Shown here piece by piece: positions 7,042-56,912 of a stretch of DNA of 64,000 nt. Positions within the stretch are counted from its first letter, which is position 1. Each line of letters begins with the position of its first letter. The notes under the pieces were generated by a model, which had not been told where the DNA came from, did no database searches, and saw nothing but the letters and a program-made list of their open reading frames with translations. Source of the DNA: Cetorhinus maximus (lineage: Eukaryota); contig NC_135901.1 in the NCBI RefSeq assembly GCF_964194155.1, forward strand, positions 21,762,001-21,826,000. The letters run 5' to 3'. A program made the translations under genes and the position numbers.

Positions 7042-7859
7042 GGTACCAGTATCCTTGTGTCTCTCCAGGCTGGACAATCAGTTGTCGCCTCAGCTACACA
7101 TAGAACACGTGTACAGTTTCTCCCCACTGGAAATGGTGTGATGTTTGTTCAGGCTGTGTAACTTGCTAAAACCCCTTCCACAGTCAGTGCACTGTAATGC
7201 TGTCACTCAGGGTGTTAGGGGGTGGGGAGTGTGTCTTGGTGCTTTTCCAGTCACACTGATGTTTGAAATCTTCTTCCACAGAAAGAGCAGACTCTCCTTC
7301 CACATTCAAAGGCCGATGATATTCAGGTCCTGATGAACTGACTGACTGTCAGTTCTTGACATGAAGTTTGGTTTGAGTTTCCCATCTGTAAATCTTCTCC
7401 TAATATTATCCTTTATAAGGAGATTACACAAGTCATCACTTTAAATCCAAGGCAGAAATCAGGAACAGACAATTCTAGTTTCTGTGGAACATTTTTTCCC
7501 CTCTTGTTTCCCCAAAGCTGTAAATCCCCGTCCCACACACACTCCCTCCTCCCTGGGCTGAAATCCAAACTCATCTCACCATCTCCACCATTTCTTTCCT
7601 CCACTCCCAGTTTTCTCCCTCCCTCTCCTCTGCCTGGGTTCAGTTCTCCAGCTCCTGTCTGCAGACTGACAATAAAATCAATGAGTCTTATTGGGGGTTT
7701 GGGGCCTCCAGCGGGTGTTTCTGAATCCTCCCCGCCCACCTCCCAGGGTTTCCTTCCTTCCCACAGATCAGATCCTCATTGATTTGAGCCCAAAGTGTAA
7801 CCTCTTATTTATTGTCCCCCCTCCCCCATCCTCTGATGTGAACCATCCTCCACTCGCTG

Positions 7860-8280
7860 AGCCAGGATGGCGGCCGTTAACCTGGGCCTGTTCCCGGGAG
7901 GGAGAAGCCCCGCAGCTGCAAACCAGGAGCTGACAATTATTCCTCAGGGTTTGCGGATCCACAAAATGTTTCCAAATCCTCCCACCCACCGCCTCGCTCT
8001 GACTCCACTTCTCCGGGACAAACAGGCGCCTCGTTCCACAAGGCCATCGATCGCAGTGCGCATGCTCCAGACTCTTTGACACTGCACCTGCGCACTGGTG
8101 TCCCGCTGCACGGCGCATGCCCCAGCTCACGGGACTCGCCTGATAGACAGATGTTCTGGACCAATAGAGGCTGGGGGCGGGTCTGGAGGACAGAGCGGGA
8201 GAGGCTGGTTCTTCAACCAATCGGAGTGAATGAGGGGCGGGGCTGAGCCCGGATCTCCCTCATTGGCTGAAACTCTGCAT
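7860..8280 (-). promoter_or_regulatory. CpG-rich promoter/first exon of ZNF gene 6103-7041
   Basis: GCGCATGC motifs (8058, 8113), CCAAT boxes (8161, 8217, ATTGG 8262), GGGGCGGG boxes, YY1-like GATGGCGGCC at 7866; locally high CpG. Confidence 0.7.
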
Positions 8281-20950: not shown

Positions 20951-21389
20951 TGGGGGACCCGTGCTCTTTAGTTGCTGTATCAATTGATTTAGTAAGTTTG
21001 TAACTTGGACAAATGGCTCCAATTGTAATCGGAATTCTGATCGCAAATCACAATGTTCTATTTAAAAATGTCAGATCTCAATGGCGTCGCTCTGACCCAG
21101 CATTCACTGCGGGTAAGACTGTGCCCTATCCACACGACAGGCGCGCCTCGCGCAGGCGTAGTTCCCGACAGAGAGTAGAGCATGCGCAGTGTAGGCTGTC
21201 AGTAGCGCTGCAAGGAACGGGGAAGAAACAATCGAGTGCAGTTGAGTAATGGAGTCGGTGGGTGAGCGGGGAGGATTAGAGCCAGCGGAATGGGCGGGAG
21301 GCTTCATAAATACCACGCGGAAGCTTCAAACCCCGAATAAAAAGTTACCGGTCCCGCATTAGCACCGAAAGGACTATGAGCTGCGGGGT

Positions 21390-21667
21390 TAAAAACAAAA
21401 AGCTAAAAGCTACTGCGGATGCTGGAAATCCAAAACAAAAACAGAATTACCTGGAAAAACTCAGCAGGTCTGGCAGCATCGGTGGAGAAGAAATCAGTTA
21501 ACGTTTCGAGCCTTCACGGCCCTTCGGCAGAACTGAAGCATAGTTAGGAGAAAGGAGACTATGCTTCAGTTCTGCCGAAGGGCCGTGAAGGCTCGAAACG
21601 TTAACTGATTTCTTCTCCACCGATGCTGCCAGACCTGCTGAGTTTTTCCCGGTAATTCTGTTTTTGT
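21390..21667. mobile_element. Miniature palindromic Penelope-like insertion with 15-bp TSD
   Basis: Arms ~21436-21544 and 21558-21667 are near-perfect inverted repeats; TSD tatgagctgcggggt at 21375-21389 and 21668-21682. Confidence 0.92.
21566..21608 (+). ncRNA. Minimal type-I hammerhead-like motif (mirror copy on - strand at ~21494-21536)
   Basis: tcagtt/aactga stem I; CUGCCGA-A core (A6 variant); gggcc/ggctc stem II; GAAAC-GUU with loopless palindromic stem III. Confidence 0.6.
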
Positions 21668-22139
21668 TATGAGCTGCGGGGTGCCTCCCGCTCACAGGCC
21701 CGGTATAGTAGGGCGCATGCGCCGTGATCCTGGATCAAGAGACAGGCAGAGTGGGTTGCCAACCTTCCAGGATTGGACTGGAGTCTCCAGGAGCTGAAGA
21801 TCAATCTGCAGGACACTGCTGTGTGCAGCCCTGGAGAAATATCTTAAGAGCATTAAAAAGATTGTTTTAATTTGTAATTTTCTTTGAACGTTTCTCCTTA
21901 TAAAAATGTTGAAAGTGGGACAAATCATCATCCAATTGCGTCACGAGAAATTTTGCTTTTCAGTTGGCCTGAGAAGGCAGCGTGTCACAAGGAAGGATGT
22001 GTTAGCCGACTAATGGCTGGAGCATGGGGACAAGTCATGTGATGGAACCTCCAGGAATACAATCAATCAGAGTTGGCAAACCTAGAGGAGAGAATATTGT
22101 GAATTTCTGTCCTAGACTGACAGTGATGGTTTCTGTAAA

Positions 22140-34179: not shown

Positions 34180-34660
34180 ATCAATGACAATAGGAGTCCA
34201 GTGCGCAGGTGCAGTGTGGGTGTGCGCTCTGAGCATGCTCAGTGTCAGTCATGGTGACAGAGGGAGGAGGAGCGGACGGTTCGGGAGGCGGGAGGAGATT
34301 GTGAGCACAGGGTAGGAATGGAAACCGCGGCTGGACTGGGAACTGGATCAACTTCTGGGGTAGGCCCCAGGCCCCGTGTTTACCCCGCGGTGACAGGCCT
34401 GGGAGGGAGGGAGCGATGGAGCCGGCGGCTGGACGGGGAGGATTTGGAAACACTTTGTGGACCCGCAAACCCTGAGGAATAATTGTCAGCTCCTGGTTTG
34501 CAGCTGCGGGGCTTCTCCCTCCCGGGAACAGGCCCAGGTTAACGGCCGCCATCCTGGGTCAGCGAGTGGAGGATGGTTCACATCAGAGGATGGGGGAGGG
34601 GGGACAATAAATAAGAGGTTACACTTTGGGCTCAAATCAATGAGGATCTGATCTGTGTTT
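34180..34660 (+). promoter_or_regulatory. CpG promoter/first exon of ZNF pseudogene 34908-35870
   Basis: GTGCGCAGGTGCA, GAGCATGCTC, GGCCGCCATC (34544); 34436-34657 nearly identical to the reverse complement of 7762-7983. Confidence 0.7.
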
Positions 34661-44886: not shown

Positions 44887-45351
44887 TCAATAAGTCTGTA
44901 ACAGAGCAATACACAGATGTTCAGCTATGCTTTGAAATGGTCCCTTGAGCCCAGTCCCACAGTGAGAGCACCTGAAAGGTCTTTCATCAGTGTGAACATG
45001 TTGATGGGTAATCAGGTCCCCAGAACTTTTATAGCACTTCCCACAGTCTGGACATTGAAAAGGTCTCTCCCCAGTGTGAATGCGCTGGTGTGTTAGCAGG
45101 TTGGATGACTGAGTGAATCCCTTCCCACACTCGGAGCAGGTGAACGGCCTCTCCCCGGTGTGAACTCGCTGGTGTGTAATCAGCTGGGATGAGCGACTGA
45201 ATCCCTTTCCACATGTAGAGCAGGTGAACGGCCTCTCCTCAGTGTGAGTGCGTCGATGAGTTTCCAGCTCAGATGGGTAACTGAATCTCTCCTCACAATC
45301 CCCACATTTCCATGGTTTCTCTCCACTGTGAACAGTGCTTTTTCCATCCAT
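44887..45351 (-). pseudogene. 3'-truncated ZNF gene (4 complete fingers)
   Basis: [15 protein letters not shown]...; fifth finger breaks at CSHCGTGL and runs into unrelated sequence; no conserved 3' UTR. Confidence 0.75.
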
Positions 45352-45582
45352 GTTCAAAGTTCTACGGTATTCAGGTTACGATAAATTGGGTGACTCCATC
45401 AGATGCTGATGTGATATTTGTTTGAGTTTCCCAACTGCAAATCCTCTGCTTCTAATACCCTGTGAAATTGATTTAAAACAGAAAAAAGGGAGTGAGAGAG
45501 AACCCACAAAAACACAAAGGCAGGTTGTGAAATTGAACTGAATGAATCTGGTCATTTGTGCGGCTGACACTAGGAAAAAGTA

Positions 45583-47862: not shown

Positions 47863-50090
47863 ATCTACCTCACGGAGGCTGAGCGTCAACTCGCAGACAC
47901 TTCCTCCTACCTCTCCCTGGACCATGACCCCACCACGGAACATCAAGCCATTGTTTCCAGGACTGTCACTGACCCCATCTCCTCTGGAGATCTTCCTTCC
48001 ACAGCTTCCAACCTGATAGTCGCCCAACGTCGGATGGCCCGCTTCTACCTCCTACCCAAAATCCACAAACAGGATTGTCCCGGCAGACCGATCGTGTCAG
48101 CTTGTTCCTGCCCCACGGAACTCATTTCTCGCTATCTTGACTCCCTTCTCTCTCCCCTTGTCCAGTCCCTTCCCACCTACATCCGTGATTCCTCTGACAC
48201 CTTACGTCACGTCAACGATTTCCAGTTGCCTGGCCCCAAACGCCTCCTCTTCACCATGGACGTCCAATCCCTCTACACCTCCATCCCCCACCGGGATGGT
48301 CTGAGGGCTCTCCGCTTATTCCTTGAACAGAGGCCCGAACAATCCCCATCCACCACTACTCTCCTCCATCTAGCTGAACTTGTTCTCACACTGAACAATT
48401 TCTCCTTTAACTCCTCTCACTTCCTCCAAATAAAAGGTGTGGCTATGGGCCCCAGCTATGCCTGTCTCTTTATGGGGTATTTGGAACATTCCTTGTTCCA
48501 GTCCTACTCCGGCCCCCTTCCACAACTCATTCTCTGGCACATCGATGATTACTTCAGTGCTGCTTCATGCTCTCGTCGGGACCTGGAAAAATTTATTAAC
48601 TTCACTTCCAATCTCCACCCCACCATCATTTTCACATGGTTCATCTCTGACACTTCCCTTCCCTTCCTTGACCTCTCTGCCTCAATTTCTGGTGATAGAC
48701 TGTTCACCAATATCCATTACAAGCCTACCGACTCGCACAGCTACCTCGACTACAGCTCCTCACACCCCGCTTCCTGAAAGGACTCCATCCCATTCTCTCA
48801 GTTCCATCGCCTCCATCGCATCTGTTCTGATGATGCCACTTTCAAAAACAGTTCCTCTGACATGTCCTCCTTCTTCCTTAACCGAGGTTTTCCACCCACG
48901 GTAGTTGACAGGGCCCTCAACCGTGACCAGCTCATCTCCCGCGCATCCGCCCTCATGCCTTCTCCTCCCTCCCAGAAACATGATAGGGTCTCCCTTGTCC
49001 TCACTTATCACCCCACCAGCCTCCACATTCAAAGGATCATCCTCCGCCATTTCCACCAACTCCAGCATGATGCCACCACCAAACACATCTTCCCTTCACC
49101 CCCCCGGCGGCATTCCGTGGGGATCGTTCCCTCCGTGACACCCTGATCCACTCCTCCATCACCCCCTACTCCTCAACCCCCTCCCACGGCACCTTCCCAT
49201 GTGACCGCAGAAGATGCAACACCTGCTCCTTCACTTCCTCTCTCCTCACCATCCAAGGGCCCAAACACTCCTTTCAAGTGAAGCAGCATTTCACTTGCAC
49301 TTCCCTCAACCTAGTCTACTGCATTCATTGCTCCCAATGCGGCTTCCTCTACACTGGAGAGACCAAACGCAGACTGGGTGACCGCTTTGCAGAACACCTT
49401 CGGTCTGTCCGTAAGCATTACCCAGACCTCCCTGTCTCTTGCCATTTCAACACTCCACCCTTCTCTCATGCCCACATGTCTGTCCTTGGCTTGCTCCATT
49501 GCTCCAGTGAAGCTCAACGTAAACTGGAGGAACAGCACCTCATCTTCCAACTAGGCACTTTACAGCCTTCCGGACTGAATATTGAGTTCAACAATTTTAT
49601 ATCTTGAACGCTTTCCTCCATCCCCACCCCCTTTCCGTTTCTTCCTCCTCCTTTTTGTTTTTTCCAATAACTTATATAGATTTTTCTTTTCCCACCTATT
49701 TCCATTATTTTTAAATGTATTTCTACCCATTGTTTATCTCTACCTTTTAGCACTTTTAGTATTCCCCCACCCTCACTACAGCTCTCTGTACCTTATCTGT
49801 CCTGCGTTCCACTCTTAATTAGCACATTCCTTTAGATAATATCACCACCTTCAACACCTCTTTGTCCTTTTGTCCGTGACTTCTTTTGGTTATCTCCACC
49901 CATTACTGGCTACTTGTCCCAACAGCGCCCCCCCCCCCCACCCCTTAAACAAGCTTATATTTCACCCCTTTCCTATTTTTACTTAGTTCTGTTGAAGGGT
50001 CATGAGGACTCGAAACGTCAACTGGGCTCTTCTCCGCCGATGCTGCCAGACCTGCTGAGTTTTTCCAGGTATTTCTGTTTCTGTTTTTTT
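47863..50090 (+). mobile_element. Penelope-like retroelement (Neptune-type), 5'-truncated: RT, Zn-knuckle, GIY-YIG, pLTR with hammerhead
   Basis: FYLLPKIHK..PGRPIVS, TMDVQSLYTSIP, GVAMG, HIDD; CDRRRCNTC linker (~49200); NLVYCIHCSQCGFLYTGETKRRLGDRFAEH; a few stops and indels. Confidence 0.93.
49984..50024 (+). ncRNA. Minimal hammerhead-like motif in PLE 3' region
   Basis: tagtt-CTGTTGA-A-gggtc atgag gactc-GAAAC-GTC-aactg; GUC cleavage triplet, non-canonical position 6. Confidence 0.6.
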
Positions 50091-50129: not shown

Positions 50130-50425
50130 GGGATGGCCGCGCATGCGCCCTGTCGCACATTGCCGCTGATCAACATGGCTGCCGTTCACCTCGCTTTGCA
50201 GCTTCACCTCGCTTGGAAACGGGGACCGGCAGCTTCGAGTTCGGCAGTCTGAAGCTTACATAACATGTTTAAAAAACCTTTCGGTCCACTGTTCGGGTCC
50301 ATCTCTCCATCCATCCCTCCACTCAGCTTTTCCGATCGGACCCAACAAACAAGCTTCCATCCGTCGCCATTACTCGCTCCGCGCATGCTCAGACACAGTT
50401 CGACACTGCGCCTGCGCACTGACCT
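50130..50425 (-). promoter_or_regulatory. CpG promoter/first exon, probably for ZNF 44887-45351
   Basis: CGCGCATGCGC (50138), CAACATGGCTGCC YY1-like, GCGCATGC (50381), TGCGCCTGCGCA; paralogous to 16720-17045. Confidence 0.7.
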
Positions 50426-50455
50426 CCTGTTGTGTGCATAGGGGACATTCTCTAC

Positions 50456-51725
50456 AAAACAAAAACAGAATTACCTGGAAAAACTCAGCAAGTCTGGCAG
50501 CATCGGCGGAGAAGAAATCAGTCAACGTTTCGAGCCTTCATGGCCCTTCGGCAGAACTGCAGCATAGTTTCAACAAGGGAGAAATATAAATTGGTTTAAG
50601 GTGGGTGGGGGGTGGGGGTGGGGGGGAAAGAGACACATTGAGGGTGTGGTGTGAGCAGATAATAATCAAAAGATGTCACAGACAAAAGGGTCAAAGAGGT
50701 GTTGAAGGTGGTGGTCTTTGTCTGAGAAAAGTGCTAATTAAGAATGGAAAACAGGATATTCAAAGTACAGCTCTAGTGGGGGTGGGGTGGAAAGACTAAA
50801 GGTTTTAGTTTTAGATTTAAAAATAATGGAAATAGGTGGGGAAAGAAGAATCTATATAAATTATTGAAAAAAAAGGCGGGTGGGGGGGGAAAAGAAACGG
50901 GGTGGGGATGGGGGGAGGGGGAGTTTAAGATCTAAAGTTGTTGAATTCAATATTCAGCCCAGAGGGCTGTAAAGTGCCTAGTCGGAAGATGAGGTGCTGT
51001 TCCTCCAGTTTGCGTTGGGCTTCACTGGAACAATGCAGCAAGCCAAGGACAGACACGTTGGCAAGAGAACAGGGTGGAGTGTTAAAATGGCAAGCGACAG
51101 GGAGTGAAGCCCAACGCACACTGGAGGAACAGCACCTCATCTTCCGACTAGGCACTTTACAGCCCTCTGGGCTGAATATTGAATTCAACAACTTTAGATC
51201 TTAAACTCCCCCTCCCCCCATCCCCACCCCGTTTCTTTTCCCCCCCCACCCGCCTTTTTTTTCAATAATTTATATAGATTCTTCTTTCCCCACCTATTTC
51301 CATTATTTTTAAATCTAAAACTAAAACCTTTAGTCTTTCCACCCCACCCCCACTAGAGCTGTACTTTGAATATCCTGTTTTCCATTCTTAATTAGCACTT
51401 TTCTCAGACAAAGACCACCACCTTCAACACCTCTTTGACCCTTTTGTCTGTGACATCTTTTGATTATTATCTGCTCACACCACACCCTCAATGTGTCTCT
51501 TTCCCCCCCACCCCCACCCCCCACCCACCTTAAACCAATTTATATTTCTCCCTTGTTGAAACTATGCTGCAGTTCTGCCGAAGGGCCATGAAGGCTCGAA
51601 ACGTTGACTGATTTCTTCTCCGCCGATGCTGCCAGACTTGCTGAGTTTTTCCAGGTAATTCTGTTTTTGTTTTGTTTTGGATTTCCAGCATCCGCAGTAG
51701 CTTTTAGCTTTTTGTTTTTATCTTT
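50456..51725. mobile_element. Large palindromic Penelope-like insertion with 15-bp TSD
   Basis: Arms 50456-51026 and 51103-51673 are inverted and near-identical around a 76-bp spacer; TSD ggggaYattctctac at 50441-50455 and 51726-51740; GIY-YIG C-terminal coding sequence in both arms. Confidence 0.95.
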
Positions 51726-51924
51726 GGGGATATTCTCTACCGCGGCGAATGCTAAGTAACCTCCCCCCCCACCCCTCAAATTGAAAGTACAAAGTAGGAT
51801 ATCCTGATTTGTTTCCCTGTTACAGAGTGGAGACTGGGGCCGGAGAGGCCAATAATAAAGTTAAAGAACAAATTATACTGAAAGCCAACTGCATGGGCTG
51901 TTCATTATCCACCGGTAAGAAGGA

Positions 51925-55905: not shown

Positions 55906-56912
55906 TAGTACATAAAATTAGTATGCGGGTACAGCCATTGATAAGGAAGGCAAATTTAAAGTTGCTGTTTATTGCAAGGGAAATGGAATATAAAAGTCGG
56001 GGTGTTGTGCTACAGTTGGACAGGGTATTGGTGAGACCTCATCTATAGTACTGTATAGTTTTCGTCTCCTTGTTTAAGAAAGGATATAAATACAGAATAA
56101 GTTTAGAGAAGGTTCACTAGACTAATAGACTGGGATGGTGGGGCGGTGGGAGGGGGAGGGGAGTGGGGGGTGGGTGGGGTTGATGGGCGGTAGTGCTATC
56201 TTGCAAGGAAAGGTTGGACAGGCTGGGCCTGTATCCATTGGAGTTTTGAACGTTAAGAAGTGAATTTATTGAAATATATAAGATCCTGAGGGGACCTGAG
56301 AGGATGGATGCCAAAAGGATGTTTTCCCTTGTGGGAGAGACTAGATCTAGGGGACACAGTATAAAATTAAGGGGTCTCCCATTTAATACAAAGATTAGGT
56401 GGAATTTTTTCTCTCAGAAGGTCATGAATCTTTATAACTCTCTTCCCCGGAGAGCAGTGGAGGCAGTGTTAGTGAATATTTTAAAGCAGGCGGAGGTAGA
56501 TTCTTGATTGACAAGGTGGTCAAAGGTTATCAGGGCAAGCAGAACATACGACCATATGAACAAGGAGCCGCAGTAGGCCATTCAGCCCTTCGAGCCTGCT
56601 CCACCATTTAATAAGATCATGGCTGATCTGATAGTAACCTGAAATCTGCATCCCACCTACCCCTGATAACCTATCACCCCCTTGCTTATTAAGAATCTAT
56701 TTACCTCTGCCTTAAAAATATTCAAAGTCTCTGCTTCCACTGCCTTTCTTGAAGAGAGTTCCAAAGCTTCACGACCCTCTGAGTGAAAAATAATTCGTCT
56801 CATCTCTGTTTTAAATGGGCGACTCCTTATTTGGAGCTGAGGCCAAAATCAGGTCTTATTAAATAGCGGATTCGAAGGTCCGAATGGACCTCCTGCTCCC
56901 AATTCGTATTGG
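55906..56912. mobile_element. CR1 (+) with a nested CR1 3' end (-, 56543-56830)
   Basis: RMFSLVGETRSRGHSIKLRGLPFNT; CR1 tails in both orientations; interrupts sequence paralogous to 20911-21100. Confidence 0.8.

Follow-up and report, generated by a model that had tools for sequence, protein, structure and literature searches.

Results

A zinc-finger gene copy with a palindromic insertion beside its promoter

The window is a 64,000-nucleotide stretch of the Cetorhinus maximus genome, and all positions are numbered from its first letter. A C2H2 zinc-finger (ZNF) exon with four intact fingers lies at 44887–45375 on the minus strand, followed by an older Penelope-like element (PLE), a putative ZNF core promoter with first exon (50255–50420, minus strand) and a palindromic insertion (50441–51740, counting the flanking target-site duplications, TSDs). 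The exon is cut within its fifth finger at ∼44932, where four of four paralogues continue and about 1.57 kb of the closest paralogue, L087, is missing. Judged from its sequence, this ZNF gene copy looks like a relaxed one.

At least 20 paralogous ZNF promoters (G000 C24 and small contigs) make up the family to which this one belongs, and they are 66–95% conserved over 350 bp on either side of the insertion point. The promoter carries motifs that, by their consensus, we take to be NRF1-like (50408–50417 and 50381, with another at 50139) and YY1-like (CGCCAT at 50365). The CGCCAT is conserved in six of seven aligned sequences, and a minus-strand splice donor at 50255–50259 in all seven. The NRF1-like motif at 50408 is 38 bp from the inserted DNA, close to the ∼35 bp given by the first-pass annotation. 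The insertion is located just upstream of the core promoter, between the promoter and conserved upstream DNA and at the edge of a CpG-rich stretch. A finger array is found to the left, on the minus strand and within 9 kb, at 8/8 paralogous promoters, one of which has a further array on the plus strand, to the right. Given these leftward arrays and the conserved minus-strand donor, the ZNF transcript presumably starts near 50380–50400 and runs leftward, away from the palindrome, which it would therefore not cross.

The older PLE copy (47864–50090, plus strand), in what is probably the first intron, is 5′-truncated, 2.2 kb long and 87.6% identical to the full-length family copy L042 described below; it has a CUGUUGA core and a GUC triplet. 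It is shared with the paralogue L089 (92% over 2.4 kb), whose promoter has no palindrome, so the likely order of events is older PLE, duplication, palindrome. Two other inverted pairs were noted in the window. One is 222 bp long (7762–7983 and 34436–34657; 98.6% identity, 26 kb apart). The other, of 170 bp at 75% identity (56365–56832), lies to the left of a plus-strand ZNF at 58.5 kb and is possibly a duplicated head-to-head promoter.

Anatomy of the palindrome

The inserted DNA measures 1270 bp (50456–51725), in agreement with the 1.27 kb first reported. It is bounded by a 15-bp TSD (50441–50455 and 51726–51740, plus strand) that contains one mismatch and was the sole repeat of at least 10 bp in the junction search. 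The last two nucleotides of the left TSD can equally be read as the element end, and at 51731 the right TSD differs from the three closest paralogues, with a T instead of their C.

The insert is built from two pieces of one element. The left piece is an inverted, tail-less PLE arm including a spacer (50454–51104, minus strand), and the right piece is a forward arm (51103–51725, plus strand); each contains an ORF end and the 3′ non-coding region/pLTR. In an ungapped comparison, 50454–51026 (minus) pairs with 51103–51675 (plus) over 573 bp with a single mismatch, 51010/51119, which is private to the right arm and lies 16 nt from the central junction. A second alignment stretches the pairing to 584 nt at 99%. 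The unpaired 76-nt spacer (51027–51102, minus strand) consists of element sequence oriented like the left arm, of which it forms the 5′ extension, and the minus-strand reading frame runs on into it. The remnant of the RT-EN ORF thus comprises the last 59 codons in the left arm and spacer and the last 33 in the right arm (stop at 51202–51204). Only the right arm carries a 50-nt tail (51676–51725, plus strand), a sequence that in L042 continues into the 5′ UTR and ORF start. Aligned to the family sequence, the pieces share a 2-nt microhomology at 51103–51104; at central junctions the overlap obtained by exact extension is upset by nearby mismatches, and reliance is placed only on the palindrome's own 2 nt.

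These measurements bear out the arms of ∼570 bp with one mismatch, the 76-bp spacer, the 15-bp TSD with one mismatch and the ∼50-nt right-arm tail of the first-pass annotation. It had also placed a GIY-YIG C-terminus in each arm; the ORF-end codons are present (33 and 59), but the GIY and YIG motifs themselves are absent. The left piece is 98.3% identical to L042, a natural full-length copy, over 652 bp, and both pieces are ∼98% identical to it, 3′ non-coding region/pLTR included; the first-pass reading of inverted pLTR-bearing arms of a PLE is supported.

The PLE family in this genome

A search with the right arm as query returned at least 1078 candidates, the best 40 of which scored 97–100%; family copies reach 3 kb. 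L042 (1520–4291, minus strand), L038, L054, L056 and L057 are near-full-length, with uninterrupted frames of 800–924 codons, and the family appears to have been active recently. L042 has a partial-tandem pLTR-ORF-pLTR structure with a 924-codon frame, and its 5′ pLTR runs through the tail into the ORF start. Its domain matches are weak (RVT_1, E 7e-6; GIY-YIG, E 4e-4), both just below the Pfam cut-offs. The predicted ORF with RT and C-terminal GIY-YIG, the pLTR-ORF-pLTR order and the inverted 5′-truncated copy place the element, by its sequence features, among the endonuclease-bearing (EN+) PLEs. A Cys-rich linker between RT and EN is C-x4-C-x2-C in L056, while L042 has another residue for the first Cys; under the criterion of PMC8557442 it may point to the Neptune clade. 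Among 35 copies that otherwise agree at 98%, a poly-C/A tract in the 3′ region (51491–51530) takes 34 distinct forms.

A CAG/GTAAT donor-like site followed by a U-rich run is present just upstream of the tail (51655–51700), and its left-arm copy faces the ZNF gene; the Penelope pLTR contains a 5′-UTR intron (PMC8557442). Classification as a non-LTR retrozyme was considered and rejected. Retrozymes are defined by tandem direct, non-coding units, each with a hammerhead (bioRxiv 10.64898/2026.07.22.740005), and the units here are inverted and contain ORF remnants.

The palindrome as a single, real insertion

The empty site was recovered at nine of ten distinct paralogous sites (14 loci examined), with contiguous flanks around a single 15-mer; the tenth has the 15-mer and the right flank only. 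Because paralogous promoters carry the empty site, the palindrome is a real insertion. A 105-nt read contig (51702–51806) runs without differences from the tail through the TSD into the flank in 4/4 runs, all from one sample, possibly that of the assembly itself; just 24 of its letters are on the element side, below the 31-letter bridging rule. Read depth was also considered as a measure of heterozygosity and rejected: the junction contig has ∼40% of the flank depth and its remaining letters match the paralogues L079–L081, which confounds the depth.

The palindrome could instead be a fold-back artefact of assembly: among the contigs listed, none reaches across the insert, and neither the left nor the central junction appears. 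A fold-back would, however, give no TSD, no one-sided tail and no anatomy common to many loci. The locus has the first two as well as an arm-private base and a microhomology junction, and 22 other loci display a like anatomy, each with its own TSD. Together with the empty sites and the right-junction contig, these features make an artefact exceedingly improbable. The first-pass proposal of one young integration event fits the single TSD around both arms, the one-sided tail and the paralogous empty sites, and a single insertion of a PLE is close to certain.

A hammerhead-like motif with a non-canonical core

Each arm contains a minimal hammerhead-like motif with an A6C core (50519–50559, minus strand; 51570–51610, plus strand), composed of a 5-bp stem I, a CUGCCGA core, a 5-bp stem II, the palindrome AACGUU and a GUU triplet. 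The layout is that of a minimal type I hammerhead, with stems I and II, GAAA, a palindromic helix III remnant and an NUH triplet, and to this extent the earlier assignment of one minimal hammerhead to each arm stands. The core does not agree with it: CUGCCGA takes the place of the canonical CUGANGA in 30/30 young copies, an Rfam scan of the 64-kb window gave no match at the gathering score, and the monomer hammerhead fold is no better than that of shuffled sequences (z 1.08). Among 78 motif matches at 40 loci the core is CUGCCGA in 59, CUGUUGA in 11 and CUGAUGA in 4, older copies having mainly CUGUUGA. Stem II shows one compensatory change between young and older copies (C-G vs U-A). In another hammerhead, A6C brought the Mg2+-dependent rate at 0.3 mM down from 0.3 to 3.55e-6 per min (PMC7151607). 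The motif appears to be a non-canonical core variant whose activity is doubtful.

An RNA spanning the palindrome would contain one hammerhead copy in sense, predicted to be fully paired with the other arm within a 579-pair duplex. PLE hammerhead variants reportedly cleave as dimers. With a single sense copy held in such a duplex, the opposite-strand hammerheads could not form the usual dimer from read-through RNA.

Inverted arms are frequent among the closest family copies

An inverted arm abuts the 5′ end in 23 of the 40 best family copies, the palindrome locus included (7.5 kb upstream were taken for the 39 other matches). These 40 loci are the best matches to a tail-bearing query among at least 1078, not a random sample, and are biased to tail-bearing, near-identical copies; L038 and L054 represent one duplicated insertion, and two of the 23 inverted arms are just 30–42 bp long. 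An independent query yielded five further palindromes among 30 loci. The palindrome is thus the majority product among the closest copies, ordinary in kind rather than exceptional.

The geometry of the arms, analysed with the reference L042 left out, is highly regular. No inverted arm (0/23) has the tail. The inverted arm ends within −6 to +3 nt of the tail start at 18/23 loci, and the forward arm ends 40–50 nt into the tail at 21/23. The TSD is 13–17 bp long at 22/23 inverted loci and exactly 14 bp at 15/23; the TSD finder is unreliable on non-inverted copies, so no contrast in TSD length with these is claimed. The longer arm is the inverted one at 8/23 loci, among them the palindrome locus, and the forward one at 13/23, with two loci equal. 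The 5′ ends of the arms are nonetheless often close, lying at most 35 nt apart at 5/23 loci (shuffled mean 1.1, p 0.0014) and at most 100 nt apart at 8/23 (p 0.00025).

A few other arrangements were noted. The central junction of L065 (G000 C12) has ∼60 nt of non-matching sequence and a short extra inverted piece, and L049 has another mini-palindrome 4 kb upstream. In the window, a miniature palindrome of the same subfamily (21375–21682) has CUGCCGA cores at 21530 (minus) and 21572 (plus), an exact 15-bp TSD, the tail on the left arm and its centre ∼20–30 nt upstream of the hammerhead.

The two arms share sequence variants

Sharing between arms was analysed in the 21 palindromes with at least 100 bp of overlap (L035 and L062, with less, were dropped), and L054, the duplicate of L038, was excluded from majority-base calls. 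Non-majority bases of the forward arm are common to the inverted arm in 68/102 cases, compared with 213/3374 between loci, and divergence is 5.4 per kb between arms and 9.6 per kb between loci. A two-site marker in hammerhead loop II, which is AA in 20, GA in 12 and AG in 7 of 39 forward arms, is the same in both arms at 20/21 loci against an expected fraction of 0.39 (p 9e-8). ORF variants shared by the arms recur in another of 62 loci more often than arm-private ones (23/45 vs 8/34, p 0.02), indicating that many were inherited and not converted later. Together with the finding that the longer arm may be the forward or the inverted one, the sharing of markers favours priming of one RNA from both target strands.

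A different account would have two RNAs or two insertion events supply the arms, which gene conversion later made alike. At common polymorphic sites 14/145 arm comparisons are discordant, with L043 and L053 discordant at two sites each, and some palindromes may, on this sequence evidence, have had two templates. L059 has 15 shared variants and one private variant between its arms, and among the 40 candidates scored, of 1418, none is a close sibling of it. Yet one TSD, of modal length 14, encloses both arms, and neither the 20/21 marker concordance nor the inherited shared variants fit separate origins. Two RNAs or two events are therefore very unlikely.

Other comparisons bear on whether one arm was copied from the other. 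The longest hypervariable tract differs between the arms at 15/18 loci and is the same at three, including the palindrome locus, where all four hypervariable tracts are equal and one has a form found in no other of 35 copies. Of 89 shared variants, 31 occur in no other of the 62 loci, and their synonymous fraction is neutral. Shared and private variants do not differ in synonymous/non-synonymous composition (p 0.58) or CpG context (p 0.67), comparisons that are uninformative here. An excess of private substitutions at 4–30 nt from the 5′ ends of the arms (7/1085 vs 120/45031; p 0.03) was noted post hoc and given no weight.

Discussion

A proposed route to the inverted insertion

The palindrome is best explained as a young, 5′-truncated insertion from an abundant PLE family, in which one RNA was likely copied from both cut strands, and which likely has no function at this site. 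The twin-priming route by itself is somewhat favoured. An RT-EN protein, which the anole element suggests by analogy to be dimeric, would nick the two strands ∼14 bp apart. On one RNA, one target 3′ end would prime where the tail ends and the other ∼45 nt upstream of that point. The two cDNAs would stop independently, here 76 nt apart; joining of their ends through the 2-nt microhomology and filling in of the strands would leave two arms, a one-sided tail and a TSD. The hammerhead would be cargo of the pLTR, and the insert a dead stub that parts a duplicated ZNF promoter and the conserved sequence upstream of it. We infer that two-strand priming on one RNA accounts for the asymmetry of the tail, the fixed TSD, the shared markers and spacers that extend either way. 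The anole PLE behaves compatibly (PMC11167929): in vitro it cuts and extends both strands and begins reverse transcription at two sites that bound the tail, and mutants in its hammerhead remain able to insert.

The main competing route is fold-back or self-priming, in which one cDNA folds on a short microhomology, copies itself and meets a stub primed at the other nick; in a variant put forward for Adineta Penelopes, an antisense template serves for the self-priming (PMC3846280). Such a model is already in print, and fold-back would explain the excess of near-equal arm 5′ ends, which later conversion fits as well. The 31 shared variants present at no other of the 62 loci, neutral in their synonymous fraction, suit it too, again equally with conversion, as do the four identical hypervariable tracts of the palindrome locus, one of them in a form of its own. 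Against this, many loci would require loops of 0.3–2.8 kb, and the arms differ in their longest hypervariable tract at most of the loci compared. Folding back of a tailed first strand leaves the unpaired part on the tailed side only, so it cannot alone explain the palindrome locus, and plain fold-back of this kind is excluded for the eight loci with the longer inverted arm, which still need a second priming for the tail. Fold-back is accordingly possible but rather unlikely. Twin priming followed by fold-back of the longer cDNA could account for the excess of near-equal 5′ ends, and a shared broken RNA end is an alternative explanation for it.

Returning to priming of one RNA from both strands, the notion can be extended to the family. 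It is an even call whether shark PLE palindromes record asymmetric twin priming, with one RNA copied from two fixed sites that lie 45 nt from each other and are each coupled to one strand of a staggered, 14-bp cut, in a family that stayed mobile despite core drift from A6 to U to C, which would imply that self-cleavage is dispensable or assisted by protein or metal. If true, asymmetric twin priming would account in a single step for the tail, inversion and TSD of EN+ PLEs. The features that produce tandem and inverted PLE structures have been called still undefined (PMC8557442), and the steps after priming were left unvalidated for the anole PLE (PMC11167929). The family statistics bear on this open question, and the same-template, strand-asymmetric, 14-bp geometry yields definite predictions for the in vitro system already available. 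A literature search, with incomplete coverage of subscription journals, found no twin-priming model for PLEs.

Possible function of the palindrome

The locus could also be functional, a reading compatible with the above origin: divergent ZNF or pLTR transcription would produce a 570-bp hairpin RNA, leading to family silencing, A-to-I editing or changed ZNF expression. The 579 arm-to-arm pairs predicted for an RNA across the insert, the conserved NRF1-like motif nearby with the CpG-rich edge, and the Penelope small RNAs reported in Adineta (PMC3846280) are in keeping with such a role. The ZNF mRNA, however, presumably leaves the insert behind, as judged from the leftward arrays at all eight paralogous promoters; the ZNF exon is truncated relative to its paralogues; and the same hairpin is offered by many other copies. 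Function at this site is thus quite unlikely. The dsRNA, small-RNA, ADAR and cruciform proposals of the first-pass annotation would apply equally to those other copies. The palindrome locus itself is of little weight: it is one stub among many, and its ZNF neighbour, itself truncated, belongs to a large cluster of such genes. Hairpin-derived silencing could be tested in a genome where a single family has left numerous long and nearly perfect palindromes, but nothing marks out this copy.

Comparison with known systems

The layout of the palindrome is already in print (PMC3846280, PMC8557442, PMC4209133); the first-pass annotation likewise took it as established that PLEs can integrate with inverted pLTRs and carry minimal hammerheads. 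In the Adineta vaga Pen2a EN+ PLE units (PMC3846280, PMC8557442), as here, an inverted 5′-truncated copy adjoins the 5′ end, one end has a tail, a TSD surrounds the whole unit and the junction shows microhomology. The tail is 40–50 nt here and 30–40 nt in Pen2a, and the modal TSD is 14 bp compared with 8–10 bp. Unlike the Pen2a units, the arms at the palindrome locus are short stubs without the ORF body.

The Anolis carolinensis Poseidon element PAc (PMC11167929) likewise has two preferred element ends bounding the tail, and its tail is also sequence that continues into the next unit. The PAc hammerhead overlaps the ORF start and its priming sites are 111–118 nt into the ORF, whereas in the present family the tail end lies upstream of L042's first Met. 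The parts of PMC11167929 covered give no strand asymmetry for PAc; here the inverted arm is never tailed.

With the minimal type I hammerheads of metazoan PLEs (PMC4209133), the present motif shares a short stem I, an extra nucleotide before stem II, G10.1-C11.1 and a palindromic helix III remnant. It differs from the hammerheads in that paper, as excerpted, in its A6C core with C7 and its GUU triplet. Opposite-strand hammerhead pairs lie 100–700 bp apart in Schistosoma; low activity of minimal hammerheads is reported as well (PMC4209133). The two cores here are 1021 bp apart, farther than in those pairs.

In twin priming by L1, the second target strand primes internally, the cDNAs are joined by microhomology and a single TSD results; the two cDNAs are copied from different regions of the RNA. 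Internal second-strand priming, a microhomology join and a single TSD are common to L1 twin priming and the route proposed here. Unlike in L1, both cDNAs would here start at the RNA's 3′ end, which gives a duplication. Set beside these systems, the palindrome is a real, young and ordinary EN+ PLE insertion, and it is the family-level mechanism alone that is of wider interest.
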